Part shown: in pieces, positions 4,140 through 57,396 of the stretch
Layout: every line of letters starts with the position of its first letter
How positions within the stretch are numbered: the first letter of the stretch is position 1
Source: Candidatus Uhrbacteria bacterium RIFCSPLOWO2_01_FULL_47_25
GTDB lineage: Bacteria > Patescibacteriota > Patescibacteriia > GWA2-46-9
Length of the DNA: 64,000 bases
Reading direction: 5' to 3'
Assembly: GCA_001791325.1 (NCBI GenBank)
Contig: MGEK01000023.1
Location: forward strand, 4,405 to 68,404
Notes under the pieces: generated by a model
Databases searched by the model: none
What the model was told of the DNA's origin: nothing
Seen by the model: the letters and a program-made list of their open reading frames with translations, nothing else
Translations under genes and position numbers: made by a program

Positions 4140-6044
4140 CTACCTACCCCCTCCAACTCGGAAACCGCCAACCGGGAAAAGACTACCGCCTGAACGCTGT
4201 TGCGTTGTAGTATTACTGCTCTCTGAAGTAATGGTTTGCGTTACCACCTCTTCGCCTTCACGGATGTCACCAGAAACTTCTGTCACTGAATCGTTAGAAA
4301 GACCAACTTCGACCGAGCGGCGTTCCGGTGTACCATCTTTGAGCATTTCAACGTAGGATCCTTGCCCGTTTTGAGACTTCACAGCGCTACCCGTCACCAT
4401 CAACACATCTTGCCTGACGTCAGTAATGATTGCCGCGGACACGCTCATGCCCGGTTTAATGCGTTCATCTTGTGTATCAAAACCAATTTTTACGTTATAC
4501 GAAACCACTCCCTGACTAACTGTTCCTATTGTTTCTATTTCTACAACGTCGCCCGTGATAGTCAATCCTTGGACAGCGTCAAATGTTAAGGTCGCTTTTT
4601 GCCCAACCTGCACTTTAGCAACATCCACCTCGTTTAATGACACTTCAGCAATCTTTTGCTTCGCTATCAAAGTAGCAACCGCGGTTGAGGAAGACGCGGG
4701 GTCGCCGAGCTTTACGTTAAGCTTGGCGACAACCCCGGCGAGCGGCGCGCGAACGGTATAATCGGCGAGCTTCTGCCGCGCGTCAGCCAACGCATTCTCT
4801 CTTTGACGGATTGCCAATTCTTGAGTTTGTATGTCAAGAGAATCAGCACCGGCTTTAAGTTTTAAAAGCGAGACCTCTTTCTCTTTAACCGCCTGTTCAG
4901 CCGCGGACAAATCCAGAGGATTATTTTGATCCATCGCTTTGAGATCTCTATCCGCGCTAACAACAGCGTCTTTGTTATCTTGCAATGTCCTCTGAACAGC
5001 AAGAAGATTTGATAAATGTCCATTCACCTGGCCATTGTAGGTAGTGAGATTGGCGCGATACTCTGCCACTTTGCTGGCGACCTGCTGATAATCAGTGGCG
5101 TTACGCAACGTCCGCAGATCGGTCCAAGTATCAAAAAGGGTGGTTTGGCTTTTGGCGGCTTCCGTAACGCGCTTTGTAGTTTCAATCGTCTCCGTCAGCA
5201 ATACTTCAGTGACCGAACGCTCCGAAAATCGACTGGCAGTTTGGTAGCTCAATAAATTAACATTGTAAGCACTGCGCGCCGCCGAATAATCGTTCTCCGC
5301 GTAATTGATAAATGGCTGAATTTTAGTTCTATCATCGGTAGTATTGCTCAAAGTGTTGATAAGAGTGCTTGTGTTGATGTAACCGGAGCCGATTGATTTA
5401 TCCGCCTTACCGATTTCTTGACCATGAAGGATATCATCCAGTTTTGTCATGATTGTCGGCAAATCAAGAAAGGAGTTGGAAATTTCATTGAAAGCGTCTT
5501 CATAGGCCTTAGTGATGTTATCAAGCGCTTTCTGTTTGGACTCCTGCGCTTTCTCATAATCTGTCGTTTGCGAGAGTTTTAACTTCTCCAAATTATCCTT
5601 GGCGCTCACCAGAGCGTTTTCGGACTGAAGAATTGAAAGCGTATCAGCGGACTGTTTAAGTTTATCCAAAGAAAGTTTCGCGCTTTCCAAGTTGACACTG
5701 GCGTCACGCACGGTTTTTAAAGCATCACTGTCGTCAAGCTCAATTAATACGGAATCGGCGGCAACTTCTTTGCCTGTCTGCACGGCTACCCTGACTACCG
5801 TACCAGAGGCTTTCGGCTTCACATCAATCTGGTTTGAACTTGCCACCTGCCCCGTGCCGCTCACTGAAACGATGAGCGTTCCTCTCTCAACTGGCGCGGT
5901 AATATACTGCGGCAAAACTTCTTTGGCAGTAAATTTTTGATAACCATAATAGCCGACGCCGGAAATAATCAAGAGAGCCACAAAAGTTTGTGCCTTATGA
6001 GCCCTAAGGTATGAAAAAAATTTTGTAGAAATTCTATTGTCCAT
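4140..6044 (-). CDS. HlyD-family periplasmic adaptor (membrane fusion protein, MacA-like) with very long coiled-coil
   Basis: N-terminal TM, about 300 aa of coiled-coil, C-terminal beta-barrel/lipoyl-like region; ORF-table start at 6119 overlaps the upstream gene, so the internal Met at ~6044 is more likely. Confidence 0.7.
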   Translation of the reverse strand: MDNRISTKFFSYLRAHKAQTFVALLIISGVGYYGYQKFTAKEVLPQYITAPVERGTLIVSVSGTGQVASSNQIDVKPKASGTVVRVAVQTGKEVAADSVLIELDDSDALKTVRDASVNLESAKLSLDKLKQSADTLSILQSENALVSAKDNLEKLKLSQTTDYEKAQESKQKALDNITKAYEDAFNEISNSFLDLPTIMTKLDDILHGQEIGKADKSIGSGYINTSTLINTLSNTTDDRTKIQPFINYAENDYSAARSAYNVNLLSYQTASRFSERSVTEVLLTETIETTKRVTEAAKSQTTLFDTWTDLRTLRNATDYQQVASKVAEYRANLTTYNGQVNGHLSNLLAVQRTLQDNKDAVVSADRDLKAMDQNNPLDLSAAEQAVKEKEVSLLKLKAGADSLDIQTQELAIRQRENALADARQKLADYTVRAPLAGVVAKLNVKLGDPASSSTAVATLIAKQKIAEVSLNEVDVAKVQVGQKATLTFDAVQGLTITGDVVEIETIGTVSQGVVSYNVKIGFDTQDERIKPGMSVSAAIITDVRQDVLMVTGSAVKSQNGQGSYVEMLKDGTPERRSVEVGLSNDSVTEVSGDIREGEEVVTQTITSESSNTTTQQRSGGSLFPVGGFRVGGGR

Positions 6045-6810
6045 TGTATTGATGAAAAAATGGAGGTGGCGCTGGGCGACGATTACCACGGACTCGCCAA
6101 GGGTTTTCTTCGGAATCAATTCTCTTAATACCTAGCGCTTGCACGGTATCGTCATCACGTTCTCCAAAGACGACCACTCGGTCGCCCGGCTGAAGATCTA
6201 ACCCGAACGGAAAACGGGTTTCTGGCGTTACCACAATCCTCAATACTTCGTCGCGACGAGTCTTAATCGCGAGCCCTTGCTCGGTCACTTCTGTCACTTC
6301 ACCAATATGAACGTTTCTAAAACGAGGCGCGCCATATTCACGGTAAAACGAACCAGCAAACGGCAGTCTATCGCGTTCAGCCCGCTCTAAGAGCCGTGAG
6401 TGGAAGGTGGTTTTTATAACCAAAAATCCGCCAAGCAAAGCAAGCGCAATTACCATCAGTGCTGAAATGAGAAGAGGGCGCCGGTAGGCGAAGGCATAGT
6501 GTCGCACCAAAAGCTCAAGGATAATTATAAAAACTATGGCGAGAAGAATGAGAAGCTTTGGCAAAGACCAGAGGAAAACGGCAAATCCGTGCCAGCCAAA
6601 GGCCGGCATAAACCACACCCCGCTTGCTCTCAAAGCAAACATGGCTAAGCTCACAACAAAGAGCAGAGTTAACCCAGCCAGGGCAATGCCGGCGACCACA
6701 AGCGTGGCTTTGAGCATAAAATGCCAACGCGGACGCATAGTCACTTCACCGCCCCGAATGCGTTCTAGCACGGCTTCGTGAATGGATTTTTTGTGTGGTT
6801 TATCATTCAT
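6034..6810 (-). CDS. putative anti-sigma factor / membrane protein
   Basis: 4 predicted TM helices; overlaps the 3' end of the ECF sigma gene by 8 nt (typical sigma/anti-sigma arrangement). Confidence 0.45.
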   Translation of the reverse strand: MNDKPHKKSIHEAVLERIRGGEVTMRPRWHFMLKATLVVAGIALAGLTLLFVVSLAMFALRASGVWFMPAFGWHGFAVFLWSLPKLLILLAIVFIIILELLVRHYAFAYRRPLLISALMVIALALLGGFLVIKTTFHSRLLERAERDRLPFAGSFYREYGAPRFRNVHIGEVTEVTEQGLAIKTRRDEVLRIVVTPETRFPFGLDLQPGDRVVVFGERDDDTVQALGIKRIDSEENPWRVRGNRRPAPPPFFHQYNGQ

Positions 6811-7372
6811 AAAACGGGTGTAATTTTTTATAAACTTTGCGAAGCATCTCTTTGCCTCGCTTTAATCTAACGCCAACGGTGGAGACTGGTAATTCCATAA
6901 TGTCGCTAATTTGCTGATAATTTAACTCCTCAAAAAAATATAAAACCAATGGTTCGCGATACTTTGGATCCAAGTCATGAAGACACTCCTCAAGCACTGC
7001 TCGTAGTTCCTTTTCATTAAAATCTCTATCAGCACGGTCGGAAGAAACGGGGTGAGGGAATATGGTATCAGGATCAAAGAAAAGCAGAGGCGCGTGGCGA
7101 CGTTTTTTGATGGCGTTCAAAAACTCGTTGTGCGCAATGCGGTATAGCCACGGCGAAAATCTGCGCCGCGTGTTGAATCCTTGAATGTTAATGTAGGCCT
7201 TTATAAAAACCTCCTGCACGAGATCTTCCGCGTCCTCAAAACCAAAAAGAAATCTTCGGGCATAACGCAACATCTTTTCCTCATATCGTTCCATTAGGAG
7301 GGAGAATGACTCGGTATCGCCGCCCTGCACACGCGCCGCTATTTCTTCATCGGTATCAGTCAAATTCGGCAT
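6803..7372 (-). CDS. RNA polymerase ECF-type sigma-70 factor
   Basis: Sigma70 region 2 (LVQEVFIKAY) and region 4 (LNYQQISDIMELPVSTVGVRL) motifs. Confidence 0.85.
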   Translation of the reverse strand: MPNLTDTDEEIAARVQGGDTESFSLLMERYEEKMLRYARRFLFGFEDAEDLVQEVFIKAYINIQGFNTRRRFSPWLYRIAHNEFLNAIKKRRHAPLLFFDPDTIFPHPVSSDRADRDFNEKELRAVLEECLHDLDPKYREPLVLYFFEELNYQQISDIMELPVSTVGVRLKRGKEMLRKVYKKLHPFYE

Positions 7373-7510
7373 ACCCCGTTAGAAGTCCTAAGAAGATAAA
7401 ATTCCTTTAAGAATTTTATCTTCTATGGCAGCAACGATGCTTAATAGATTCATAGACCGTATCATTGCCTAAGATACATTAATTATACTATGTCAGACTT
7501 CTAATGGGGT
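7373..7510. repeat. TIR element copy A (15-bp terminal inverted repeats CCCCGTTAGAAGTCC / GACTTCTAATGGGGT; internal hairpin AGAAGATAAAATTC-loop-GAATTTTATCTTCT)
   Basis: Seen directly; TIR ends 1 nt before the ATG of the sigma factor gene; distal TIR flanked by a 10-bp direct repeat AATTATACTA (7481-7490, 7511-7520). Confidence 0.8.
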
Positions 7511-7861
7511 AATTATACTACACTTTAACCATGTTTTTATTTCATCAAATGAAAGAGGCCGGCCGTTATCCAAACAACGGTCGGCCCCTGCTGTGTTTCA
7601 CAGCACCACTGCCAGCCCCTCGCTGATGGTAAGAGATAGCGCCCCTTGCACTTCATCAAACGCAGGTGATCGATCGAAAACAAACTCAAGCCGCACCACT
7701 CCTCCAACTCGGAACGACCTAAGAGAAGTAATGTTGATCCCCTTGGCAAGGAAAACACCGACTTTTAATTAATCCTTCAACCGTCTGCCGCTTTTATTCC
7801 ATTTCCGATAGAAACACGGGTGATAGCTATAATGACAACACCCCTTTCTTCTTTTGGGCTA

Positions 7862-8758
7862 CTACCTCCTGATCATCCTTGAAATTGGTATTTCAATGAC
7901 GTCTCTGGCGCCGCGCCGTAACACTTCAAGAAAAGTATCGTTTACTTCTCTCTTGGACACCACGGCACTGACAGACACGAATGCTCCTCCCGCCAGGCCT
8001 GCCACTGTTGGACTCTCTAGGGCCCGCAGACAGCCGGTGATTTCCTCAAGCTGCTGACGAGGAACATTCATCACTAGCATGACGTAACCGCGGGCCTCAA
8101 TCACTCCGAGAAGCAAACGCTTTAGATCCTGAGCCAATTTCGCCAACTTGGAATTTTTGACAATGTCGGTCTTGGCGATCATCACGGTTTGCGACTCCAT
8201 GATCACCCCAATGATCTTAAGGTTATTGGCCTGAAGCGAGGCACCTGTTTCAGTCAAGCACACTCCATACGGGGCAAGTTCCGGCACCATCGCCTCTGTT
8301 GAGCCAGCCGTAAAGCGCACCCGAACACGCTTGCCGCTTGTATCAAACAACTGCCGGGTGAGGTTAGGGTACTCGCTCAATACGAGAACATCATCTAGCA
8401 CATCCCCTACTCCACGACAAGGATTGTCAGCATACGTTACCAAAACAACGCGCGTCGGACCATCGGTAGATCTGCTGTATGACAACATTGTCAACTCCTC
8501 AACACGACCCCCACTCTCCCTGACGCAATCCTGTCCGCAAATGCCGAGGTCAAAACTACCTTGCTCTACCGCCCAGGGAATTTCCTGCGGGCGCATTAAA
8601 ACCACTTCTTCAATCATGGAACCACTAACGGTTCCGGTGCAACGGCGCGGCGATACGGTGATCGCCAAATCTGCCTGCGCGAACAACTCTAACGTCTTCT
8701 TTTCCAGGCTGCCGTTGGGTAGCGCGAGACGCAGCGCGTTTTCGTTCTTCTTGGTCAT
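7862..8758 (-). CDS. hisG: ATP phosphoribosyltransferase, long form (HisG)
   Basis: Collinear similarity to E. coli HisG (LRLALP.GSL, DLGI.G, ETGASL.AN.L, C-terminal regulatory domain); AAGGAGG SD 5 nt upstream of the ATG. Confidence 0.8.
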   Translation of the reverse strand: MTKKNENALRLALPNGSLEKKTLELFAQADLAITVSPRRCTGTVSGSMIEEVVLMRPQEIPWAVEQGSFDLGICGQDCVRESGGRVEELTMLSYSRSTDGPTRVVLVTYADNPCRGVGDVLDDVLVLSEYPNLTRQLFDTSGKRVRVRFTAGSTEAMVPELAPYGVCLTETGASLQANNLKIIGVIMESQTVMIAKTDIVKNSKLAKLAQDLKRLLLGVIEARGYVMLVMNVPRQQLEEITGCLRALESPTVAGLAGGAFVSVSAVVSKREVNDTFLEVLRRGARDVIEIPISRMIRR

Positions 8759-8887
8759 TTTTCCTCCTTTATGTTTTCTCTGTTGCTGCGGTTATACCAA
8801 TTAAACTAACCACCATTTTTATACCTGCCACTGTGCTTTTATGTTTGGCCGCCTCCTTTTTGTCAAAGAGCAAATTCTTCTCCAAGA

Positions 8888-8912
8888 AACAAAAAACCCT
8901 TCCGGAGAAGGG
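8888..8912 (-). terminator. Rho-independent terminator-like hairpin (CCCTTCCGGAGAAGGG + U-run on minus strand)
   Basis: Perfect 6-bp GC stem followed on the minus strand by UUUUUUGUUU; lies in a ~700 bp gap without credible ORFs. Confidence 0.5.
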
Positions 8913-9410
8913 ATCGATCGTGGTGTTGTTGATTTATGTAAAAAAGTAGATTCAAATAAAATTAACCACAGCCAATCTCTTCTCCGAAGAGGTTGCTGTG
9001 ATGATAAGTCTGATTTTGGACCAATGTAACCATAATGCAATCATTGTAATTTAATGATTATTTTCTGTCAAGCGGCGGCATATAACAGCCCTGCCACCTT
9101 CTGTCGCAATTGCGACAAAAGGTGGTGATAAAACCAGCCCCGCTTGGCGAGGCTGATAATCCTGCAACGCAGTGATGGAATGTTTGAACTCTAGCAAGCG
9201 TTAATTTGTCTTTTAACGTTCCAGCTCCTCGTTGGCGACGATCTGTACTTTAGCGTTAATGGTGGAGCCCCACGGGTTTACCCATGTCACCTCTCCACAC
9301 CTTCTCGCGCATTCATCTACCCCCCGCCGCGGCGGGGGGCTTTCTGCGAAGGAGGGTAAATTACTACAGTACTTTGCCATCGACAGCCCCCAGCACGATA
9401 ATAGACCATG

Positions 9411-9445
9411 CATAAAGCCCCCGCCATGGGCGGGGGCTTTATGGA
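9411..9445 (-). terminator. GC-rich hairpin 20 nt downstream of HU stop (AAAGCCCCCGCC-ATGG-GCGGGGGCTTT)
   Basis: 12-bp perfect stem; the U-tail is partly inside the stem, so an intrinsic-terminator function is uncertain. Confidence 0.4.
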
Positions 9446-9464
9446 GTTTTTAAAGCTTTAAAAA

Positions 9465-9746
9465 CTAAAGTACTGCCTCTTTGGCGGCCTTGGCCACACG
9501 GAATTTGACTACAGTTTTGGCTGGAATCTGAATTTCCGCCCCAGTAGCAGGATTTCGTCCCATGCGGGCTTTGCGGTTAACCTTGACAAGCTTACCAATA
9601 CCCGGAACCACAAACTCGCCGTTGCGCTTGACCTCTTGATAGGCAAGAGTGGTCATTTCCTCCATTAAGGTAGCTACCTCTTTCTTGGCCACACCCACCT
9701 TACTGGCCAGCGCCTCAATAATCTGCGCCTTTGTCATTTTAGCCAT
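9465..9746 (-). CDS. hup: DNA-binding protein HU
   Basis: Full-length HU/IHF family signature (GFGKF-like arm RNPATGAEIQIPA). Confidence 0.9.
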   Translation of the reverse strand: MAKMTKAQIIEALASKVGVAKKEVATLMEEMTTLAYQEVKRNGEFVVPGIGKLVKVNRKARMGRNPATGAEIQIPAKTVVKFRVAKAAKEAVL

Positions 9747-10130
9747 ACTATAAATTTAAAGAATTAAATGAAGCCACTGGCTTCACCCCGCCAAGGGCGG
9801 GGTTTATTAAATCCATATCGCTTCATCCCTACGCTCACGCGCAGGATATTCGCGGGGATTTAATAAAATGGTACGACCTTTATAATGTTAATAACATATT
9901 TAATACTAAGGAAAAGTATACACGAGAGCCACTAATAGGGCAACACCCCCCGGACAGGACCAAATTCTAAGCTCTAAGTACGAATTTCTAAACAAATTCC
10001 AAGTCCCAAATTCTAATAACTCCAATAAGTTTATAATTTGTGATTTCGGATTTGTGATTTGCTTAGCCTGCCTGCCGCGGGCAGGTATTTAGAGATTAGG
10101 CATTCGAAATTACAACAAAAACCAACATTC

Positions 10131-10817
10131 TCACTCTTTATAACTGCGCGGGGAAACCACTACCACATACTCACCCGGCGGAGGATTAGACGACAGCCGA
10201 GCGGCCAATGATATGGCCGAACCGCGATACAGGGTTTCAAATTGCTTGGTCAGCTCACGCGCGACGAGTATCAACCGCTCTGGATCGCGCTCGGACAAGG
10301 CCGTCAAGGCCTTGACTATGCGGTGCGGCGATTCATAAAAGACGACGCTACCTGAAGTCGCGGCAACTTGATTAAAAAAATTTTGGCGCCCCTTCTTATG
10401 CGGCGGAAATCCCATAAATGTAAATTCGTCCATCGGAAAACCGCTGACCGACGCGGCCACTACCAAAGCGCACGGCCCGGGAACGGGCACGACGCGCAGC
10501 TCTTCGCCAAAACGCCGCATGGCTTCGGCAACTAGTTTGCCGCCCGGATCGTTTATGCCGGGCGTGCCAGCGTCACTAACTAAGGCCATGTCATGTTTAA
10601 CCAATAAATCAAGAATGGACTTCAGGCGCGCCAACGAAGTATGGTGGTGATAAGAAATCAGTTGAGGCGAAATACCAAGATGGGACATCAAGATTCTTGT
10701 TCGTCTTGTATCTTCAGACAAAACAATAGGCACACTTGAAAGCACTTGCCGCGCTCGCTCGCTAATATCTTTTAAATTACCAATAGGAGTAGCAACGATG
10801 TAAAGCGTGAAAGCCAT
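10131..10817 (-). CDS. rsmI: 16S rRNA (cytidine1402-2'-O)-methyltransferase RsmI (tetrapyrrole methylase fold)
   Basis: LYIVATPIGNLKDIS N-terminal motif and overall length typical of RsmI. Confidence 0.8.
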   Translation of the reverse strand: MAFTLYIVATPIGNLKDISERARQVLSSVPIVLSEDTRRTRILMSHLGISPQLISYHHHTSLARLKSILDLLVKHDMALVSDAGTPGINDPGGKLVAEAMRRFGEELRVVPVPGPCALVVAASVSGFPMDEFTFMGFPPHKKGRQNFFNQVAATSGSVVFYESPHRIVKALTALSERDPERLILVARELTKQFETLYRGSAISLAARLSSNPPPGEYVVVVSPRSYKE

Positions 10818-10872
10818 AAGCTATAAGCCGTAAAACAATAAAATCAAAAAGGCAAAAGTACAAGTTCAAGGT

Positions 10873-10932
10873 CAAAAGCTTTTGAATTTTGCATTGTAAT
10901 TTTGACTTCTAACTTTTGAATTTTGACTTCAA
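10873..10932. repeat. 60-bp repeat copy 1 (CAAAAGCTTTTGAATTTTGCATTGTAATTTTGACTTCTAACTTTTGAATTTTGACTTCAA)
   Basis: Near-identical to 11448-11507; overlaps the stop codon and last 7 codons of gene 10909..11403. Confidence 0.85.
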
Positions 10933-11403
10933 CCGGCGCCTGTATATCTCTAGATAAGCCAACACCAGCAAACTGTAGTTGACTATCATAAATGTCGGAT
11001 CGGCCCAATTAATGGCGTTTACTTTCCATGATGAGAGGGGAAACAAGAAAGGTGTCGGAAAAAATTCGTAAGTGTGCGTACCAATATCAATCAAAATATG
11101 CAGACCCCAGGCGGCAAGCGGCCACCAAATTTTACCCGAACGCCATAGCGCCACTAAGCCAAAAACGACTAAAAAAATTACGGCACTATGTGTGTAATTG
11201 TATATAAAAGAAACGTACAATGGTATGGATTCTACCTCCGGACGGCCAACGCCAAAAGTTCCAAATAAAATTCTGGAGATCATAAACGGACCAAAAGAAA
11301 ATAAATCAGGGGCCACGCCAAAAAATATCGCCCACCACCGATCAGCCGCGCGCTGTCGCTGATAAATAACATTGGCCCAAAGTCCATGAGCGAGAGTGTC
11401 CAT
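10909..11403 (-). CDS. hypothetical polytopic membrane protein
   Basis: 4-5 TM helices; C-terminal LKSKFKS tail encoded by the 60-bp repeat. Confidence 0.5.
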   Translation of the reverse strand: MDTLAHGLWANVIYQRQRAADRWWAIFFGVAPDLFSFGPFMISRILFGTFGVGRPEVESIPLYVSFIYNYTHSAVIFLVVFGLVALWRSGKIWWPLAAWGLHILIDIGTHTYEFFPTPFLFPLSSWKVNAINWADPTFMIVNYSLLVLAYLEIYRRRLKSKFKS

Positions 11404-11447
11404 GACAATAATTCAAAAGTTAAAATGTAAAAGGCAAAAGTGTAAGT

Positions 11448-11507
11448 CAAAAGCTTTTAAATTTTGCATTGTAATTTTGACTTTTAACTTTTGAATTCTG
11501 ATTTCAA
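11448..11507. repeat. 60-bp repeat copy 2
   Basis: 55/60 identity with 10873-10932; overlaps the stop codon and last 7 codons of trxB. Confidence 0.85.
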
Positions 11508-12470
11508 ATTCTCAAGGTATTCTTCGGCTTCCATGGCCGCGGCACAGCCCCGACCGGCCGCAGTTACGGCCTGGCGGTATTTTTGATCCTCAACATCGCC
11601 AGCCACAAATACTCCGGCGATGTTCGTATGCACGCCGTCAGGACTGATAATATAGCCTGCTTCGTCAAGACCAAGCTCTCCACGAAATGGTTCAGTATTG
11701 GGTTTGTGTCCGATAGCGACGAAGACTCCTTGACAATTAATCGTTTTAATCTCGCCTGTTGTTATGTTTTTAAGACGCACCCCGGAAACCATGCTGGCGC
11801 CCAAAACTTCAGTAACTTCCATTGGCACACACCAAAATATCTTAGAGTTGGCTCGGGCCCTATCTTGAAGAATTTGCTGGGCGCGAAAGGACTCCCTCCG
11901 ATGAACTATCGTAACTTGACTGGCCAGCTTGGCTAAATAAATAGCCTCCCGCATAGAGCTGTCTCCCCCGCCCACCACAACCACTTCCTTATTCTTGAAA
12001 AAATAACCATCGCAAACAGCGCAACTGGATACGCCATGCCCTATTAGGCGCTGCTCTGATGGCAATCCTAACCAACGGGCGCTGGCGCCGGTGGCCACAA
12101 TAACGCTCTGCGCTTTCAGTTCCTGGTCGTGCATTGAAACAGTAAAAGGGCGCTCTTTGAAATTCACAGCCACAACACTATCACCAATAAAACTAGTACC
12201 AAATCGTTCCGCCTGACGCTTCATCCGGTCCATTAATTCAGGACCTTGCAATCCTTCAGGGAAGCCGGGGAAATCTTCAACATCAGTAGTCAATGTTAAT
12301 TGGCCACCCTCTTCATGTCCGGTAATGACCAGAGGCGACAAACTAGACCGCGCCGCATAAATAGCGGCGGTTAAGCCGGCGGGTCCAGAACCAATGATAA
12401 TTAATTTATAAACTTCGTTGACCATAATATTAACATACCACGAATATAGAGCCAGTCCATTATCAAACAA
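11484..12470 (-). CDS. trxB: thioredoxin-disulfide reductase
   Basis: FAD motif GSGPAGLTAAIYAAR, redox-active CAVCDG, NADPH GGGDSS motif. Confidence 0.9.
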   Translation of the reverse strand: MFDNGLALYSWYVNIMVNEVYKLIIIGSGPAGLTAAIYAARSSLSPLVITGHEEGGQLTLTTDVEDFPGFPEGLQGPELMDRMKRQAERFGTSFIGDSVVAVNFKERPFTVSMHDQELKAQSVIVATGASARWLGLPSEQRLIGHGVSSCAVCDGYFFKNKEVVVVGGGDSSMREAIYLAKLASQVTIVHRRESFRAQQILQDRARANSKIFWCVPMEVTEVLGASMVSGVRLKNITTGEIKTINCQGVFVAIGHKPNTEPFRGELGLDEAGYIISPDGVHTNIAGVFVAGDVEDQKYRQAVTAAGRGCAAAMEAEEYLENLKSEFKS

Positions 12471-15150: not shown

Positions 15151-15151
15151 A

Positions 15152-15308
15152 CCCCGTTAGAAGTCCCGCCCATTCGGCGGGCAGGCCTCAGAAGACAAAA
15201 TTCTCTTAAGAATTTTGTCTTCTATGGTAACTAGAATATTTAGTTGGTTGGTAGATTGTATCATATATAAAAGATTGGATATTGTGCTAAGTCAGACTTC
15301 TAACGGGG
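15152..15308. repeat. TIR element copy B (CCCCGTTAGAAGTCC ... GACTTCTAACGGGG)
   Basis: Perfect 14/15-bp TIRs; internal hairpin AGAAGACAAAATTC-loop-GAATTTTGTCTTCT; ends 1 nt before the ATG of gene 13507..15150. Confidence 0.85.
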
Positions 15309-18832: not shown

Positions 18833-18855
18833 AAAGGCAATCTTCTAGCGGGGTT

Positions 18856-18991
18856 CCCCCGTTAGAGGGTCTGGGCGGAAAAAGTTTTAGCTAAAACTTT
18901 TTCCGCTAACTTAAACAGAACAGTATTAATAATAAGACGGCCAATGGTCATAATAGTAGGTAACCAAGATAATGACGACCCTCTAACGGGG
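18856..18991. repeat. TIR element copy F with co-varied termini (CCCCCGTTAGAGGGTC ... GACCCTCTAACGGGG) and internal 15-bp perfect hairpin GCGGAAAAAGTTTTA-GC-TAAAACTTTTTCCGC
   Basis: Termini differ from the consensus (AAGTCC to AGGGTC) but stay mutually complementary; the right TIR supplies the TAG stop and last 3 codons (EPR) of mreB. Confidence 0.75.
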
Positions 18992-20035: not shown

Positions 20036-20086
20036 GATATATCAAGTCAAAAGTTATAATTCAAAAATAAAAATTACAATTCAAAA

Positions 20087-21367
20087 TTATAAAGTCTTGC
20101 CTATCGGCTGATTGATAAAAGTTTTATATTTGTCAATTTCGCCGATAATATCCTTGACCACTCTCGCGCGCGACGACATACGTTCTTTTAATTCATAAAC
20201 ACCATCCTTTACTGTTTTGTCGCTCACTACCAATCTTAAAGGAAGACCAATTAAATCCGCGTCTTTAAGTTTCACTCCGGCTGACGCATCGCGATCATCA
20301 TAAAGTACATCCAGACCAAGTTTGTTAATTTTTTCATAAAGCGCGTTGGCCTGTTTGACAATTTCTGGCTCGTCGCTAAGGCGCACTAAATGAACTTGAT
20401 AAGGCGCAACAGCAGACGGCCAGCAAATGCCTTCTTTGTCATGATGTACCTCTACAATCGTCCCCGTGACGCGCCCAAGCCCAATGCCGTAACATCCCAT
20501 TAGCACTGGCCTATCCTCCCCTTTCTCGTCTTTGTATGTCAGCTTGAATGGCTCGGAAAATTTTGTTTTCAATGGAAAAATGTTGCCAACCTCAATGGCC
20601 TTCTCAATCTTGAGATCATCTTTGGGGCGACCGCACTCTGGACAAACTTTTTGTTCATCAATAATCTCCCCGTTAACCGCCACACCGCAATGTTCGCACA
20701 AATATATAGTATCTTCCCCAGCTGACGTCAATGTCTGAAACTCGTGCGAATATTTGGAAAAAGTACCGCCTGAAGCAAAGGTAAAAACTGTGCGTTCACC
20801 AATGCCCGTGCGGTTAAAAATTTTTTTGTAAGCATCAGCGACTTTTTTGTAATAAGCATTAAAATCTTCCTCGTTAACATGAAAAGAATATAAATCTTTC
20901 ATCATAAACTCCCGACCGCGCAAAAGTCCGGATTTAGCCCGAAGCTCCATTCTAAATTTTGTCTGAAACTGATAAAGAGCCAACGGCAAATCTCGGTAAG
21001 ACGAAATATCGCGCTTGGCCAACGGCGTGATTATTTCTTCGTGCGTCGCGCCCAGAGCAAAGTCACGTCCGCTGGAATCGGTGAGCTTGTATAAATCATC
21101 AACCGTTTCCCAACGACCGGTTTGTTCCCAGGCCTCTCTCGGGTGAAGCGCTGGCAATAAAAGCTCCTGCCCGCCAATGACGTTTATCTCTTCGCGAATA
21201 ATATTTTCTATTTTATTGAGAACTCGGAGTCCCAGGGGCAAAAATGAATAAACCCCGGCCATTAATTTCTCCACATAACCAGCCTGAACCAACAGGCGAG
21301 CATTTATGCTCTGTTCGTCTTTAGGCGGGTCGCGAAGAGTTTTACCGAATAGTTTGGATTGAAACAT
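20087..21367 (-). CDS. proS: proline--tRNA ligase (archaeal/eukaryotic type, no editing domain)
   Basis: Class II aaRS motifs, C-terminal zinc-binding CEHCG...CPECG typical of ProRS type II. Confidence 0.85.
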   Translation of the reverse strand: MFQSKLFGKTLRDPPKDEQSINARLLVQAGYVEKLMAGVYSFLPLGLRVLNKIENIIREEINVIGGQELLLPALHPREAWEQTGRWETVDDLYKLTDSSGRDFALGATHEEIITPLAKRDISSYRDLPLALYQFQTKFRMELRAKSGLLRGREFMMKDLYSFHVNEEDFNAYYKKVADAYKKIFNRTGIGERTVFTFASGGTFSKYSHEFQTLTSAGEDTIYLCEHCGVAVNGEIIDEQKVCPECGRPKDDLKIEKAIEVGNIFPLKTKFSEPFKLTYKDEKGEDRPVLMGCYGIGLGRVTGTIVEVHHDKEGICWPSAVAPYQVHLVRLSDEPEIVKQANALYEKINKLGLDVLYDDRDASAGVKLKDADLIGLPLRLVVSDKTVKDGVYELKERMSSRARVVKDIIGEIDKYKTFINQPIGKTL

Positions 21368-21375
21368 AAGTTAGG

Positions 21376-21479
21376 AATACGAAATATTCTTACGAAAATA
21401 CGAAAATGTACGAAAAAATGGCTTTTTCTCACGTTGAAACGATATTTCGTATATTCGTAATATTTCGTACGTTCGTATG
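21376..21479. promoter_or_regulatory. array of direct and inverted TACGAAA / TTTCGTA heptamers immediately upstream of proS
   Basis: GAATACGAAATATTCTTACGAAAATACGAAAATGTACGAAAAA ... ATATTTCGTATATTCGTAATATTTCGTACG; same motif family upstream of three other genes. Confidence 0.5.
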
Positions 21480-24680: not shown

Positions 24681-25799
24681 TCAAGAAACCAAACGGCGCA
24701 GACTCATTAGCCAGCCGCTAAACGCGCCACCAAAACGCTTTAAGTCAAAATAAGTAACAACCACTACTAAAATAATCAAGACGGTAAAACCCAAACTATG
24801 AATGCGACCCTCTAATTCCGCCGATACTGGCCGGCGTCTAATGATCTCAATAAAAATAAAAAGAAGGCGACCACCATCAAGCGCCGGAAAGGGCAATAAA
24901 TTAATAAAGGCTAAATTTAATGACAATATGGCGACAAACTGTAAAATGTAAATCCAGCCAAGGCTGGAAACTTTGCCAGAAAGAACGGCGATACCAACCG
25001 GACCAGTCACGTCTATCGACGCCGGCGCGCCTCGAAATAACCCAACGACTAATTCACCTAACGTAGTGGCGATCAGGCTGAAAAGTCTGGCCGTCAACCG
25101 TGTTGCTTCCACTGGTGCTTTGTACCAAGGATAAGAAACCGTGGCCGTTGTAAACAAACTAACGCCTATACCATAAACTTCTTGATCGCGAAATTTGAGA
25201 AGTGTTGGCTGAATTGTGACTGTGCGGTATTCTAAGTTGCGCTTAATAACCAGATCAAGTTTGGAATTGGCATGATCGCGAATATATGACTGTAAATCAG
25301 ACAACGAAGCAAAAATCTGTCCATCAATTGACACAATTGCATCTCCGCTCTCCAGAATGCCATCCGCCGGGCTCTGGGGCAGGGTAGCGGCAATATAATG
25401 CTGAACGTCGCTTAAACGCGCTCCAGCCGGCAATGATTCACCTAACTCTTGCGGTAAACCGACAGCGTAACCAATAGTAAATAAAAATACCACCACCGCT
25501 AAATTCATCACGATGCCGGCAACAATTATAACCGCCCGGCGCCAGGGTGACTGAGAAGAAAAGCTGTCGGGTCCGACGACTGTTCGTTCTTCGCCCCGAA
25601 TCCGCACAAACCCCCCCAAAGGAATCCAATTGAAAGAATAAACAGTTTGGCCTAGCCGCTTTTTGAAAATTGCTGGCGGAAAACCAAAGCCAAATTCGTC
25701 CACCGCCACGCCAAACCAACGAGCCGCCCCAAAGTGTCCAAACTCATGCACCAGCACGAGAATGAGTAAAGTAATAATGAAAGTCAAAACTCCAATCAT
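24681..25799 (-). CDS. rseP: RIP metalloprotease RseP (site-2 protease); start probably at internal Met (MIGVLTF)
   Basis: HEFGHF zinc motif, PDZ domain, LDGG motif; the N-terminal 14 codons of the ORF-table model translate an intergenic repeat. Confidence 0.85.
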   Translation of the reverse strand: MIGVLTFIITLLILVLVHEFGHFGAARWFGVAVDEFGFGFPPAIFKKRLGQTVYSFNWIPLGGFVRIRGEERTVVGPDSFSSQSPWRRAVIIVAGIVMNLAVVVFLFTIGYAVGLPQELGESLPAGARLSDVQHYIAATLPQSPADGILESGDAIVSIDGQIFASLSDLQSYIRDHANSKLDLVIKRNLEYRTVTIQPTLLKFRDQEVYGIGVSLFTTATVSYPWYKAPVEATRLTARLFSLIATTLGELVVGLFRGAPASIDVTGPVGIAVLSGKVSSLGWIYILQFVAILSLNLAFINLLPFPALDGGRLLFIFIEIIRRRPVSAELEGRIHSLGFTVLIILVVVVTYFDLKRFGGAFSGWLMSLRRLVS

Positions 25800-25932
25800 G
25801 GATATAAAATTCAAAAAGCAAAAGTCAAAATGGCAAGTCAAAAGTTCTAAGTTCTATGTTCTGGGTTCAAAGCACCACATATATATTAAAGATTATATAT
25901 TGGAGACTAGAGACTGTGGTAGCAGTGGCAGA

Positions 25933-27940: not shown

Positions 27941-27999
27941 TAATTGATCGTTGTATTATTTAAAAATTAGAAATTATATTTATGGATTTTCTAACGGGG

Positions 28000-29124: not shown

Positions 29125-29532
29125 ATGCCTCACCAAATACTACCACATACTGCCGATGTTAGACTGCTCGTGGAAAACGAAACTGTAGAGGGACTTTTTA
29201 TTGAAGCACTTCAGGGCATGACAGAGATAATGAAGCCTATTGAAGAGATCAATGCCCGGCCGGCGAGCCGCCGCATTTCCCTTAAGGCTGCTGATAGCAC
29301 TGCCCTACTCGTTGACTTTCTTAATGAAGTGCTTTCAATGACTGAAATAAATCATGAAACTTACACTGATATTGTTTGGCAACACTTTTCAGAGCGTCGC
29401 TTAACGGTAAAACTAATCGGCAGAAGCGTCGCTGGTTTTGCCAAAAATATCAAGGCCGCCACCTATCACGAAGCGGACATCAGAAAAAACCCAAAGGGAA
29501 ATTTTGAAACGGTTATTATTTTTGATATTTAA
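29125..29532 (+). CDS. archease (RtcB activator)
   Basis: N-terminal PHTADV motif and about 135 aa length; immediately upstream of rtcB. Confidence 0.8.
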   Translation: MPHQILPHTADVRLLVENETVEGLFIEALQGMTEIMKPIEEINARPASRRISLKAADSTALLVDFLNEVLSMTEINHETYTDIVWQHFSERRLTVKLIGRSVAGFAKNIKAATYHEADIRKNPKGNFETVIIFDI

Positions 29533-29670
29533 CCCCGTTAGAAGTCCGACTTAATATCACCTTAAGAATCTCTTATCTATACCACAATCCATGAATACAC
29601 TAAACACCATAATTACCACCGCAGATAAAATTCTCTTAAGAATTTTATCTGCCAAGGACTTCTAACGGGG
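29533..29670. repeat. TIR element copy C, filling the entire archease-rtcB intergenic space
   Basis: Left TIR starts the nt after the archease TAA; right TIR GGACTTCTAACGGGG ends 1 nt before the rtcB ATG; internal hairpin GCAGATAAAATTC-loop-GAATTTTATCTGC. Confidence 0.85.
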
Positions 29671-29671
29671 T

Positions 29672-31117
29672 ATGATCCCTAAACAATCCTTAGTAAAAAT
29701 TCACGACTGGCTTTGGGAAATTCCTAAAAGTTATCGCCACGACATGCGCGTGCCGGCGCGGGTTTGGACTTCGGAAAAAATGCTTGAAGACATATTGGGC
29801 GATAGATCGCTTGAACAAGCGGTTAACGTGACCACCCTGCCTGGCATTGCCAAAGCCGCTTTAGTGATGCCAGACGTGCACGAAGGGTATGGTTTTCCCA
29901 TTGGCGGCGTCGCCGCCATGCGCTGGCCAGATGGTGTAATTTCTCCGGGCGGCATTGGTTATGACATTAATTGCGGCGTGCGCCTTTTGAAATCAGAGCT
30001 GTCGTTTAATGATGTGGCCGCTCATCTTTCTTCCTTAGCTCGTGAGCTTTATCATGAAGTGCCTTCAGGCGTTGGTCGCGGCGGCACTATTAGACTCAAT
30101 ATCATTGAACTTGATCGCGTGCTCAAAGATGGGGTTGGCTGGGCTATCAAACATGGCTACGGCGAGGATCAAGACGCGCGCTACTTGGAATCATCAGGCG
30201 CGCTCGCTGATGCCGATCCATCTGCTGTTTCTGAACACGCTAAAAACCGCGGCCGCGATCAACTGGGCACCATGGGCGCGGGCAATCATTTTGTGGAAGT
30301 GGACAAGGTAACACAGATATTTGATTCGTCCACGGCAAAAACCTTCGGCTTATGGCAAAATCAAATTGTAATTCTCATTCACTGCGGCTCTCGGGGTCTG
30401 GGTCATCAAGTGGCCACCGACTATATTCGCCTAATGCAGAAAATAATGCCGCGCTACCACATTAGTTTGCCCGACAGAGAACTTGCCTGCACTCCCCTTT
30501 CTTCTCTGGAAGGGAAAAATTATTTTAACGCCATGGCCGCGGCCGCTAATTTTGCCTGGGCCAATCGCCAACTAATCACGCATGAGATCAGGAATAGCTG
30601 GCGCAAAGAATTTGGCGCAAGCGCCAGCCAATTATCCATTCTTTATGATGTCGCCCATAATATAGCCAAAATTGAAGAACACATTATTGACGATAAGCCG
30701 CAAAAACTTATAATGCATCGCAAAGGCGCGACGCGCGCCTTTGGGCCCGGGCATCCAGAAGTGATTGAAGAATATCGCGCCGTGGGACAGCCAGTAATAA
30801 TCCCGGGCTCTATGGGTACGGCTTCTTATGTTCTCGCGGGCACCAAGCAAGCCATGAAAGAATCATTTGGCTCTTCCTGCCACGGCGCCGGTCGCCGTAT
30901 GTCGCGCCATGCGGCCAAACGAGCCGTGCAAGGAGGGGCTCTCCGAGACCAACTGGCGAAACAGGGCATCCATATTCAAACCGGCTCGCTCTCTGGTTTA
31001 GCCGAAGAAGCGCCACTGGCTTATAAAAATATTGACGATGTGGTGGACGTAGTATCCAAAGCCGGCCTTGCCAAAAAAGTAGCCCGCCTAGAGCCGCTGG
31101 TGGTAGTCAAAGGTTAA
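29672..31117 (+). CDS. rtcB: RNA-splicing ligase RtcB
   Basis: Conserved RtcB motifs (GNHF, SCHGAGR, metal-binding His/Cys); 481 aa. Confidence 0.95.
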   Translation: MIPKQSLVKIHDWLWEIPKSYRHDMRVPARVWTSEKMLEDILGDRSLEQAVNVTTLPGIAKAALVMPDVHEGYGFPIGGVAAMRWPDGVISPGGIGYDINCGVRLLKSELSFNDVAAHLSSLARELYHEVPSGVGRGGTIRLNIIELDRVLKDGVGWAIKHGYGEDQDARYLESSGALADADPSAVSEHAKNRGRDQLGTMGAGNHFVEVDKVTQIFDSSTAKTFGLWQNQIVILIHCGSRGLGHQVATDYIRLMQKIMPRYHISLPDRELACTPLSSLEGKNYFNAMAAAANFAWANRQLITHEIRNSWRKEFGASASQLSILYDVAHNIAKIEEHIIDDKPQKLIMHRKGATRAFGPGHPEVIEEYRAVGQPVIIPGSMGTASYVLAGTKQAMKESFGSSCHGAGRRMSRHAAKRAVQGGALRDQLAKQGIHIQTGSLSGLAEEAPLAYKNIDDVVDVVSKAGLAKKVARLEPLVVVKG

Positions 31118-31411: not shown

Positions 31412-31654
31412 TCACTGAGAGGCGCTATGTTTCTGTTCATAGGCGCAAAGCGCTAACTTGACGCCGACCAGAACGAATTTGGTAGCCAGCTCATACGACT
31501 CTTCTGGCGCGAGGCCGTCGCCAATCATGCACTCTGCTAACTTCCTCCTTTCTCTCTCAAGGTGAACCTTAGTAACGGCTCCTACCCCGCGCACCATGAT
31601 GGCCTCATTTTCACGAAACTCCTGACTGTCAACAACTAAAACCGACGTGCTCAT
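31412..31654 (-). CDS. hypothetical small protein (80 aa)
   Basis: Canonical SD GAAAGAAGGAGG 5 nt upstream of the ATG; preceded by a 9-bp stem hairpin in the leader. Confidence 0.55.
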   Translation of the reverse strand: MSTSVLVVDSQEFRENEAIMVRGVGAVTKVHLERERRKLAECMIGDGLAPEESYELATKFVLVGVKLALCAYEQKHSASQ

Positions 31655-31761
31655 CGCGCCCTCCTTCTTTCAAACTTTGGGAGAAGCGACCCGCAACGTT
31701 TCGCTTCTCTGGTTTCCATAGTTCACTGTTGCGGACGGGTATTTATAGCACAGGTTATGTA

Positions 31762-36977: not shown

Positions 36978-37406
36978 AATACATAATAAACACTAAACTC
37001 TAAGCACGAATTTCTTCAGCCCAAGGCTGATCCGCCTCGGGCGGAAAACTCTAAATTACAAACATCAGTGATTTGGGTCATTGAGATTTCGAACTTAATC
37101 ATTGTTTAGAGATTAGAAATTATTTGAATGTAACAATGTAACTATGAATAGAAAAGCATCACGAGCAAAATAATAAATCCTATTGTCCCCAATGTCAGCA
37201 TAGACGAGATTAAACCAACAACAAAGGCCTGCTTAGACGTTAAGCCGAATCTAGAGTTATCATTTGATACGATCATTTCAACGTGATCGGCCTCATCAAA
37301 ATCCGGATCAAATGGAATTTGCTGTTCTAAATTGGGAGAATGGTGAATCATGAATTATGAATTATTCTTACGAAATATTATGGCCATACAGCTTATGGCT
37401 TACAAC

Positions 37407-40146: not shown

Positions 40147-40175
40147 ATAATTTACATTCGGGAGCTATTCCCCTG

Positions 40176-40445
40176 TCAATGACGACGACAAAGACGATAT
40201 ACCTCCATCAATTCCTTTTTAGATCTCTGTTCTTTCCCGCTTTTGATCTGTTCTATAACATGCGTCGCGATATGATGCTCAAGAATTAAATCTTCAATGG
40301 CGCACAACGCTTCTTTAATGGCTGACGATTGATGCAGTATTTGAATACAGTATGTATCATTCTCCACCATTCGCTGTAGGCCACGAACCTGCCCCTCCAG
40401 AATTTTTAAACGGCGAATGGCTGTTAATCTCGTCTTTTTATTCAT
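40176..40445 (-). CDS. csoR: CsoR/RcnR-family metal-sensing transcriptional repressor
   Basis: DUF156 length and Cys-His-Cys ligand arrangement. Confidence 0.8.
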   Translation of the reverse strand: MNKKTRLTAIRRLKILEGQVRGLQRMVENDTYCIQILHQSSAIKEALCAIEDLILEHHIATHVIEQIKSGKEQRSKKELMEVYRLCRRH

Positions 40446-40508
40446 AAATCTATGATACCCCCTAGGGGTATTTATGTCAATGCTAGTAACTTACCCGCCG
40501 TTCGCCGG

Positions 40509-41129: not shown

Positions 41130-41183
41130 CCCCGCTAGAAGTCCTCGGAAGATAAAATTCTTGAGGGGATTTTATCTTCGGCG
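41130..41183. repeat. truncated TIR element D (one terminus CCCCGCTAGAAGTCC plus canonical internal hairpin)
   Basis: CGGAAGATAAAAT-loop-ATTTTATCTTCG adjacent to the TIR; no partner TIR found; 66 nt upstream of gene 40509..41063. Confidence 0.6.
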
Positions 41184-57261: not shown

Positions 57262-57262
57262 A

Positions 57263-57389
57263 CCCCATTAGAAGGCCTTCCCAGCCCCGCCTAGCGGGAC
57301 TGATAAGATAAGCGGTTGAATGAATAATAATAGTTACGTTGGCGGTTTATAGAGAGTGGATTAATCATAAAGACGGCCTTCTAACGGGG
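57263..57389. repeat. TIR element copy E with co-varied termini (CCCCATTAGAAGGCC ... GGCCTTCTAACGGGG), filling the HK-RR intergenic space
   Basis: Termini changed AAGTCC to AAGGCC on both arms, keeping complementarity; ends 1 nt before the response-regulator ATG and starts 7 nt after the kinase stop. Confidence 0.8.
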
Positions 57390-57396
57390 CATATCC

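Follow-up and report, generated by a model that had tools for sequence, protein, structure and literature searches.

The locus described here raises a simple question: why do two adjacent and unrelated genes end in nearly the same seven residues? It lies in a stretch of 64,000 nucleotides from Candidatus Uhrbacteria bacterium RIFCSPLOWO2_01_FULL_47_25 (contig MGEK01000023.1, positions 4,405 to 68,404), which was analyzed as a whole and is called the window in the following. The initial annotation had pointed to a 60-bp repeat at positions 10873-10932 and 11448-11507 of this window, which ends two minus-strand genes, one encoding a membrane protein and the other the thioredoxin-disulfide reductase TrxB. 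The repeat was readily recovered: the two segments are identical at 56 of 60 positions (93%) in an ungapped comparison, the two open reading frames (ORFs) terminate in LKSKFKS and LKSEFKS, respectively, and among all other pairs of AT-rich 60-mers from the window none attained 40/60. Each segment turned out to be part of an imperfect palindrome of ∼100 bp made up of degenerate heptamers, which belongs to a sequence family present in many phyla. The shared tail is a by-product of this element, and it is the pattern at the level of the family, more than the common heptapeptide, that gives the finding its weight.

Two copies of a heptamer-array hairpin

The likeness of the two copies outlasts the 60-bp segment. 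It extends over ∼100 nt, with one 7-nt indel and 76/88 identical positions for the whole element, and continues for 60 to 80 nt beyond both stop codons into noncoding DNA. Both copies contain the 22-mer GTCAAAATTACAATGCAAAATT (minus strand), for which 0.01 occurrences were expected by chance in shuffled sequence. All genes concerned are encoded on the minus strand: trxB (PF07992; ORF at 11484-12470, whose 313-aa form at 11484-12425 equals database protein P0001), the gene for the 164-aa membrane protein, which is flanked by both copies (10909-11403; no Pfam match), and an rsmI-like methyltransferase gene downstream of copy 1 (PF00590; 10131-10817). Copy 1 (10832-10932), delimited with nhmmer, Tandem Repeats Finder (TRF), a palindrome search (palindrome I11) and folding, occupies most of the spacer between the membrane-protein gene and rsmI (10818-10908) plus 24 nt of the membrane-protein ORF. 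Copy 2 (11404-11507; nhmmer, palindrome I9 and fold) takes up the whole spacer between trxB and the membrane-protein gene. An independent assembly of the same population (L003) differed by 1 SNP over ∼7.9 kb (4560-12460), elements included.

On the transcribed strand, the first (5') arm of each copy consists of degenerate GTCAAAA-type heptamers (GTCAAAA, TTCAAAA, GTTAAAA, TTACAAT and GCAAAAT), and the second (3') arm of units approximately complementary to them (CTTTTGA, CTTTTGC and ATTTTAA). The first arms span 10879-10932 in copy 1 and 11454-11507 in copy 2, with the 22-mer core at 10885-10906 and 11460-11481, respectively. The second arm of copy 1 (10832-10878; TTTTGAC/TTTTGCC-type heptamers) is degenerate at its 3' end; that of copy 2 (11404-11453) ends 6 nt 5' of the membrane-protein ATG. 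Copy 2 forms a palindrome at 11410-11497, with arms 11410-11453 and 11454-11497 (I9) around the center AAAGCTTT, and the imperfect palindrome of copy 1 (I11) has the same center. Copy 2, like many other family members, is bounded by terminal inverted repeats (TIRs), AATTCAAAAG ... CTTTTGAATT, at its outer ends. TRF reported tandem heptamers at 10880-10926 in copy 1 (period 7, 6.9 copies), autocorrelation had maxima at lags 7 (0.57-0.59) and 14, and the spacers with the copies contained 24-29% G+C. When trimmed to the arms, copy 2 folded with -17.5 kcal/mol (z = -3.0; 0/200 shuffles equally stable) and copy 1, with its degenerate second arm, with -19.3 kcal/mol (z = -1.8). In both copies the stop codon of the upstream gene sits in the stem, and in copy 2 the heptamer with the stop, GTTAAAA, and the second-arm heptamer TTTTAAC are exactly complementary.

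A profile built from 20 copies of other organisms gave four nhmmer matches in the 64 kb, of which only copy 2 (11404-11503, E = 1e-20) and copy 1 (10832-10929, E = 1e-20) were full-length. Two features were peculiar to both copies, a zero-length loop AAAAGCTTTTGA and a GTTA(A/G)AA unit, which suggests that one copy was derived from the other.

Origin of the common C-terminal tail

Both genes run into the first arm and stop there. The membrane protein ends in ...RRRLKSKFKS-TAG, its last seven codons and stop (10909-10932) lying inside the first arm of copy 1, and TrxB ends in ...LENLKSEFKS-TAA, with the corresponding codons (11484-11507) within the first arm of copy 2. On the minus strand, the two stop codons are located within GTTAGAAGTC and GTTAAAAGTC, respectively. 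In the core of the first arm every frame is free of stop codons, and the second arm is blocked by stops in each of them, so that an ORF entering at the first base of the element runs on for 0, 7 or 28 to 30 codons, depending on its frame. Both window genes use the 7-codon frame, which yields LKS(K/E)FKS; this is a 1-in-3 coincidence and requires no special explanation. Because the second arm is closed in every frame, a full hairpin at the 3' end of a gene necessarily provides the stop codon, and it is half elements that are found inside genes.

Whether the TrxB tail is specific to this lineage had been raised by the initial annotation, and the orthologue comparison, which it had fixed beforehand as the one capable of refuting a repeat origin, did not refute it. 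TrxB orthologues were conserved through ...EEYLE(N/S) and divergent afterwards, with the closest ones ending in ...ESFKP (90% identity), ...ESLTLLAK (78%) and, in several proteins of ∼70% identity, ...ESLTLSAK; SLTLSAK is probably the ancestral TrxB tail of the clade. Many more distant TrxB proteins of the candidate phyla radiation (CPR; among P0027-P0060, ∼60-63% identity) natively end in ...EEYLENLK or ...ENLKS. The leucine, perhaps LKS, of the window TrxB tail may therefore be ancestral, and the part that derives from the repeat is certain only from ...KSEFKS (AAATCA... onward), the resemblance of the native ends to the repeat-encoded tail being a coincidence.

In the two nearest relatives, L001 and L002, syntenic contigs kept the order trxB, membrane-protein gene, rsmI, and the membrane protein ends in ...RRKISN and ...RKRQGRRREVNLEC, respectively. 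In these relatives the same two spacers hold heptamer palindromes with other units, of the AAGCC/GCTTATA and CTACAAG types in L001 and of the CAAATGT/GCCAAAT types in L002, and the tail SFKP of the L001 TrxB is encoded by that genome's own array. The GTCAAAA-family profile had zero matches in L001 and none of significance in L002. In contrast, TTCTATA-type hairpins in the mreB-mreC spacer and in the spacer between the penicillin-binding protein 2 (PBP2) gene and the next gene were >90% conserved between the window and L002 (78% identity in TrxB). TRF detected ∼15 period-7 arrays in the window, and together with the arrays of the relatives these mark heptamer hairpins as a standing feature of the spacers in this lineage. 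Some arrays were kept vertically and others replaced, and the GTCAAAA type is new at these two sites in the window lineage. Since the relatives have other hairpins in the same spacers together with different tails, and since the first arm is open to translation, the shared tail is a by-product: both tails derive from the repeat and not from coding constraint, which explains the coincidence between two unrelated proteins. We infer that the tail peptide itself is functionless and a neutral consequence of the repeat.

On the other side of copy 1, the last ∼14 nt of its spacer before the rsmI ATG belong to an AAGCCAT-type array. Beside copy 1 at the rsmI start, 25 nt of an arm of the AAGCC type (ACGGCTTATAGCTTATGGCTTTCA) are preserved, which matched, at 24/25 positions, the arm preceding the membrane-protein gene of L001. 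The occurrence of this 25-mer before different genes in the window and in L001 is further evidence of modules moving between spacers. At the rsmI start itself (10805-10833, minus strand), the window protein begins with MAFTLY... and those of the relatives with MTLY.... The ancestral ATG site now reads TTC, and the start lies two codons upstream, in an ATG of the AAGCCAT-type array (GGCTTAT AGCTTAT GGCTTTC); here the start codon, too, was supplied by a repeat.

A family of related elements in many phyla

For the core pattern GTCAAAATTACAATNCAAAATT, the representative genomes of GTDB species gave 43 exact matches and JGI metagenomes 105 matching stretches (148 in all). For comparison, ∼0.3 matches are expected by chance in the 596 Gb by a naive estimate that assumes uniform composition. 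No match to the 22-mer was present in IMG/VR, and blastn of copy 2, with the low-complexity filter on, found no match among INPHARED phages or PLSDB plasmids. According to the record titles, the copies come from many CPR classes, NPL-UPA2, Omnitrophota, Bacteroidales, Deltaproteobacteria, Dehalococcoidales, Latescibacterota and others. One NPL-UPA2 genome contains at least 11 copies on long contigs, and one Bacteroidales copy lies in a nuo operon. The second arm, ...AACTTTTAACTTGCACTTTTGCCTTTTGACTTTTAACTTTTGAATT, which is outside the search pattern, was present in many copies and matched the second arms of the window. Copy 2 and an NPL-UPA2 copy agree at 80/90 positions (89%), which is as close as copy 2 is to copy 1 over the full length, and the same sequence in other phyla is 80-89% identical. 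From this distribution, the family appears to spread horizontally.

The copies fell into several settings. In 40/148, the hairpin by itself lies in a spacer between codirectional genes, in either orientation; pairs of copies surround a single gene on a Bacteroidales contig (nuoI) and on a Dehalococcoidales contig (rplS). Another 40/148 lie in a frame that has no stop for 75 nt or more to each side, and 40/148 are first-arm tracts in a noncoding or unclear setting. In 10/148, an ORF with a PF05635 domain follows directly downstream of the first arm. The remaining copies were cut by contig ends (4/148) or, by a crude test, had no family-like flanks and are possibly chance matches (14/148). An ORF of 100 aa or more on the same strand ended close to 45 of the copies; its stop codon was inside the arm in 6 of these, including the two of the window, and preceded the arm by no more than 15 nt in another 16. 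Eight of 10 trimmed family members were matched in stability by at most 1/200 shuffles, with z values down to -5.3, and both arms were conserved in sequence, stem-mismatch positions included. We found no description of this family in the literature on CPR repeats, on PF05635 flanks or on the NPL-UPA2 genome, a coverage that is incomplete and leaves room for a prior description.

Copies inside genes and around PF05635 genes

In-frame copies always used the sense strand of the first arm and occurred in all three frames (...KSQNYNSKFK..., ...SKLQFKIQ... and ...VKITIQN...). Their host proteins include TsaD, PolX, a UvrD-like helicase, RecJ, RecX, DHFR, the CCA-adding enzyme, a Mur ligase and Fmt. 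Alignment to solved structures placed an insert of 9 residues in DHFR and, for one TsaD, three inserts with lengths of 39, 9 and 11 residues, and 50 TsaD orthologues had hypervariable, low-complexity peptides of varied length, or no insert, at the same three loops. In two orthologue pairs, PolX (L007 and L016) and Mur ligase (L117 and L126), the same first-arm insert was present at the same position and was 80-87% identical, compared with 62-65% for the coding flanks. Without the 22-mer that the search had forced to match, however, the identity of the inserts equaled the family background, so that recent insertion and constraint are not separated; ancient retention, site preference or conversion could each account for the shared positions.

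Parcubacteria-type TsaD proteins (L005, Patescibacteria MAG REEB69, where MAG stands for metagenome-assembled genome; P0122-P0171) were 373-473 aa long versus the usual ∼340. The peptides at their three loops are rich in K, S, Q, N and F and apparently encoded by heptamer arrays; a few orthologues have the short canonical loop, and some inserts look palindromic when the protein is back-translated (..NSKFLILNS..).

The PF05635 ORFs (23S rRNA intervening-sequence, or four-helix-bundle, S23p/Avd-like proteins) of the 10 copies encode ∼120-134 aa and start directly after the first arm; for three of them, the Pfam match had an E value of 1e-23 to 1e-25. In L038, the PF05635 start codon is located within ACAATGCAAAATTC of the first arm. 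A second arm follows the ORF in all five loci that were inspected (L038, L039, L028, L008 and L019 at 4773) and carries the stop codon of ...K(K/N)F in AAAACTTTTGA. Other PF05635 genes in the same loci are enclosed by inverted heptamer or octamer arrays with different units.

Each window copy contains a mini-ORF (10844-10893 and 11416-11472, minus strand) that starts with an ATG in ACAATGCAAAAT and encodes MQNSKAFDLELVLLPF and MQNLKAFDLHFCLLHFNF, respectively. Since the same ATG is the PF05635 start codon in L038, these mini-ORFs look like remnants after deletion of the ORF.

Comparison with known repeat systems

The closest resemblance was to the intervening sequences (IVSs) of 23S rRNA that contain an S23p/PF05635 ORF, as in Coxiella, Leptospira and Brucella and in Xanthomonas-type S23p. 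In Coxiella, the IVS has a 28-bp stem of terminal inverted repeats, with GACAGAT heptamers in tandem upstream of its S23p ORF; RNase III removes it from the transcript, and it is seen as a selfish element whose origin is unknown (PMC4990558). Like these IVSs, the family combines a TIR stem, upstream tandem heptamers and a PF05635 ORF in the loop, and in both cases there are ORF-less hairpin versions and a sporadic distribution suggesting horizontal transfer (PMC4990558). The window copies show the TIRs with an extended stem (I9 and I11; copy 2, z = -3.0) but are ORF-less, the combination of loop ORF and tandem heptamers being found in other members of the family. Unlike the near-perfect 28-bp IVS stem, the family arms are ∼45-nt, AT-rich heptamer arrays with regular mismatches. 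The copies also differ in location: IVSs are inserted in helix 25 or 45 of 23S rRNA, whereas the family occupies mRNA spacers or protein genes, the window copies lie between protein-coding genes, and none of the 148 copies was near a match to conserved 16S or 23S rRNA probes. With no rRNA in the window either (Rfam at gathering thresholds gave zero matches across the whole of it), the window elements are ORF-less-IVS-like at most and not members of the class.

Intergenic heptamer arrays form a second group. They include the short tandemly repeated repetitive (STRR) sequences of Calothrix and Nostoc, the TAACTGA arrays common to Beggiatoaceae, cyanobacteria and Bacteroidetes, for which horizontal transfer was suggested although "no mechanism is evident," and the GGGAATC arrays of Xanthomonas, 70-75 of which occur as convergent pairs (PMC4692102, PMC4679880). 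The family shares with them the period of 7 in spacers, often immediately ahead of a start codon or reaching into the 3' end of the preceding ORF, as well as convergent inverted pairs and a cross-phylum distribution. It differs in its unit, GTCAAAA/TTTTGAC, and in that a defined composite of ∼100 nt, not the unit alone, is conserved across phyla. The STRR units CCCCAGT, TTGGTCA and CAACAGT are different from GTCAAAA/TTTTGAC. PF05635 or S23 is not mentioned in PMC4679880 or PMC4692102, and we found no literature report of the frequent in-frame coding copies.

In their tolerance of in-frame insertion, the elements behave like other small palindromic repeats, a likeness that concerns behavior only. 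Rickettsia palindromic elements (RPEs) reportedly occur as in-frame palindromic repeats within protein genes, where they are said to form new peptide segments or C termini (Ogata et al. 2000). In enterobacteria, the small mobile palindromic repeats of the repeat unit (RU) and enterobacterial repetitive intergenic consensus (ERIC) type are likewise tolerated in frame inside ORFs and can form such segments (PMC2759123). In contrast to both groups, the present family mostly has one arm within ORFs, the other arm being closed in all frames, and spans phyla instead of one genus or family.

Repetitive extragenic palindromes (REPs) are 20-40 nt long, G+C-rich and tagged by GTAG/CGTC (PMC3733652). REPs, bacterial interspersed mosaic elements (BIMEs) and REP doublets (REPINs), with their REP-associated tyrosine transposases (RAYTs), resemble the family as palindromes dispersed in operon spacers and with an associated gene between inverted repeats, and they influence the stability of mRNAs. 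REPs are reported to stall ribosomes when they lie within about 15 nt of a stop codon (Liang, Rudd & Deutscher 2015). The family, however, has 24-29% G+C, a heptamer build and AATTCAAAAG/CTTTTGAATT ends without a GTAG/CGTC head, and the gene that it flanks encodes not a RAYT but a four-helix-bundle protein for which no nuclease or transposase fold is known. MITEs (miniature inverted-repeat transposable elements) such as Correia/NEMIS are similarly short, noncoding, dispersed, bounded by TIRs and capable of fusing to gene ends. For the present family, neither a target-site duplication nor a parent insertion sequence (IS) bearing a transposase was found: an alignment of 18 copies showed no conserved flanking duplication, no family copy had a transposase as cargo, and none was present among the 19 of ∼62 window ORFs scanned against Pfam. 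Membership in the REP/BIME, attC or intrinsic terminator classes was rejected, as each fails in at least one tested feature, and membership in the MITE class found no support beyond the TIRs.

Interpretation and alternatives

We consider it probable that the window elements are ORF-less members of an IVS-like family of heptamer hairpins that came from a horizontal source and rewrote the two tails as a by-product, with an RNase III or stabilizing site as their likeliest role. A horizontally acquired GTCAAAA-type element would have replaced or converted earlier heptamer hairpins at both adjacent spacers, and this replacement, by insertion or by array-to-array conversion, would have rewritten the last codons of both upstream genes. 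In the polycistronic mRNA, the element is predicted to fold into an imperfect AU-rich hairpin of 35-40 bp, which would hide both the stop codon of the upstream gene and the bases immediately 5' of the start codon that follows. The stems of 23S rRNA IVSs provide the analogy for its most likely activity, which would be as a site of RNase III processing or stabilization. As a side effect, downstream initiation might be coupled to upstream translation, with ribosomes at the stop codon melting the stem. The initial annotation had proposed a mobile or recombining module that overwrites gene 3' ends; the occurrence of the family in many phyla, its absence from the spacers of two relatives and its in-frame presence in genes agree with this, the movement itself being only inferred.

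Several observations weigh against this reading. Neither an empty-site/filled-site pair nor a target-site duplication or transposase was found for the two window copies, so that mobility is deduced from distribution. The phylum labels are titles of MAG records, in which misbinned contigs are possible, although the long NPL-UPA2 contigs and the Bacteroidales nuo operon speak for these two assignments. Because the family was gathered by an exact 22-mer, conservation of its first arm looks inflated. RNAalifold recovered only 7 consensus pairs and zero compensatory changes from 19 hairpins; the pairing register is not conserved, which leaves a function as RNA structure unproven. The fold of copy 1 is only marginally above shuffles (z = -1.8). 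The tie to IVSs, given the missing rRNA neighborhood, consists of architecture and cargo, and a PF05635 gene is absent from the 64-kb window. Moreover, the relatives have hairpins at the same sites and the TTCTATA type is vertically conserved, so that part of the pattern could be due to evolution in situ together with gene conversion. Protein binding at the DNA level, or a purely selfish element without cellular role, may apply instead.

A wider reading would be that heptamer-array hairpins, with or without a PF05635 gene in the loop, form an unrecognized, horizontally mobile class of selfish elements, of which the 23S rRNA IVSs are only the rRNA-resident subset. Such elements would colonize operon spacers and, as half elements, the surface loops and C termini of housekeeping proteins in CPR, Omnitrophota, NPL-UPA2, Bacteroidota and others, at fixed sites but with turnover of sequence. 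If true, this would explain the origin of IVSs and S23p as well as the cross-phylum heptamer repeats; we hold it only tentatively and think it somewhat more likely to be wrong than right. As it stands, the family combines known kinds, namely, IVS-like hairpins, heptamer arrays and in-frame palindromic repeats, and is no new category.

Among the rival explanations, the strongest was a resident cis-regulatory cassette, i.e., an intercistronic terminator or attenuator together with an internal promoter or initiation leader, kept by selection and homogenized across the two neighboring spacers by gene conversion. Vertical retention of this kind is possible in view of the TTCTATA-type hairpins, which are so well conserved at the syntenic spacers of L002. 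The coding strand of both copies, furthermore, reads TTCAAA-N16-TACAAT, and the distance from the ends of the second arms to the following start codons is 6-25 nt, in a window where only ∼6 of 62 genes have a Shine-Dalgarno (SD)-like motif upstream. This last figure was the same with or without an upstream heptamer array, so that SD-less leaders have no specific tie to the arrays. A terminator/promoter cassette, the second option of the initial annotation, found no support: promoter-like sites numbered 8 versus 6.1 expected in shuffles, and an intrinsic (Rho-independent) terminator was rejected, since the terminator scan called neither copy and the stems are rich in A-U and G-U pairs, not in G+C. 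A resident cassette is also hard to reconcile with 80-89% identical sequence in other phyla and none in the syntenic spacers of L001 and L002, and with family copies that lie in both orientations relative to the flanking genes and inside ORFs. We regard it as unlikely.

Less probable still, by about half, is an array of heptamer binding sites that would act at the DNA level for a protein (four-helix-bundle protein, nucleoid protein or recombinase), its symmetry resulting from dimeric binding or from the genesis of the array instead of from RNA folding. The conservation of both arms, stem mismatches included and without covariation, the strict heptamer periodicity and the association with PF05635 genes would all suit such an array. 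However, no binding protein was identified, the window has no PF05635 gene, many copies are single translated arms in genes, which are hard to square with a binding function, and the folds of single sequences are significantly stable. Integron-type attC sites between gene cassettes are very improbable: the copies are, it is true, imperfect palindromes of ∼100 bp between codirectional ORFs and overlap the upstream stop codon, as is often the case for attC sites, but two relatives have the same order of trxB, membrane-protein gene and rsmI, these are housekeeping genes, the ends AATTCAAAAG/CTTTTGAATT are unlike RYYYAAC/GTTRRRY, and no integrase was seen among the annotated window ORFs. Finally, chance, low complexity or a need of both proteins for the same C-terminal peptide has a negligible probability, because, despite AT-rich, low-complexity sequence and the ...ENLK(S) ends of distant CPR TrxB proteins, such coding-driven convergence is ruled out by the 56/60 identity without a second 60-mer pair of even 40/60, the low expectation for the 22-mer, the similarity well past the stops and the other tails of close orthologues.

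The IVS-like family, as the preferred explanation, connects three phenomena hitherto considered apart: 23S rRNA IVSs with their S23p/four-helix-bundle ORFs, intergenic heptamer arrays and translated palindromic repeats. A sequence of ∼100 nt that is 80-89% identical across phyla and brackets PF05635 genes provides a handle on function and spread. For annotators, it means that repeats can be the source of the final codons of CPR proteins and of some of their internal loops.

Partial copies, other arrays and further repeats of the window

The two remaining nhmmer matches were partial. The third segment that the initial annotation had placed before rseP at 25811-25840 is a real partial copy of the second-arm type only, located at 25798-25861 on the minus strand (model positions 64-127, E = 1.8e-8; palindromes I6 and I12) and adjoining the rseP start (ATG at 25799-25797). 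A fourth, first-arm-type partial copy, absent from the initial annotation, at 20036-20094 on the plus strand (nhmmer match 20044-20130, E = 1e-7; I3 and I4), antisense to the genes, fills the spacer between an aminoacyl-tRNA synthetase (aaRS) gene and mreB. This spacer holds a 51-nt half copy in the window, whereas in L002 the aaRS gene and mreB overlap and the half copy is absent.

Inverted pairs of other arrays were common in the spacers of the window, with a period of 7 at 10036, 10811, 15319, 15389, 18732, 18797, 25842, 37344, 51844, 51914, 52372, 52412 and 62091, and a period of 8 at 21391, 21446, 27908 and 29014. They consist of degenerate tandem units of unrelated types (TTCTATA, TTAGAGA, ATTTGTG, AAGCTTA, TACGAAAA...), and the heptamer and octamer types other than TTCTATA had no occurrence in ∼1 Mb of other organisms' loci. 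Sub-threshold Rfam hits in 10780-11560 were chance matches only (MIR1888 and DicF, E ∼0.05).

A separate MITE-like family of ∼135-140 bp with TIRs ACCCCGTTAGAAGTC...GACTTCTAACGGGGT, often with a GAAGATAAAATTC...GAATTTTATCTTC hairpin, was present at 7373-7509, 15151-15308, 18842-18991, 27988-27999, 29533-29671, 41130-41143 and 57262-57396. Two of its copies, in the mreB-mreC spacer and in the spacer downstream of the PBP2 gene, are precise insertions relative to the syntenic L002 contig, and several stop right at a start codon (...AACGGGGT-ATG). The initial annotation had linked this family to the hairpin element by a common 10-mer around the stop codons. The match to the ACCCCGTTAGAAGTC terminus is exact in copy 1, whose 10-mer is one substitution away from the family consensus, but copy 2 has the family-typical GTTAAAAGTC; the agreement is thus probably due to chance, and kinship of the two families was rejected.

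Several stretches of 320-700 nt had no ORF of at least 90 aa and no Rfam match (7373-7861, 8759-9464, 9747-10130, 31441-31761, 36978-37406 and 40147-40508), and small hairpins rich in G+C, of types that recur (CCTGCCCGCGGCAGGCAGG; CCCCGCC..GGCGGGG), lie in some of these. Of the putative genes of the window, 60/62 are on the minus strand. The only plus-strand genes among the ORFs of at least 90 aa that were taken as genes are those for archease and the RNA ligase RtcB (29125-31117), and the TIR element at 29533-29671 lies exactly between them.

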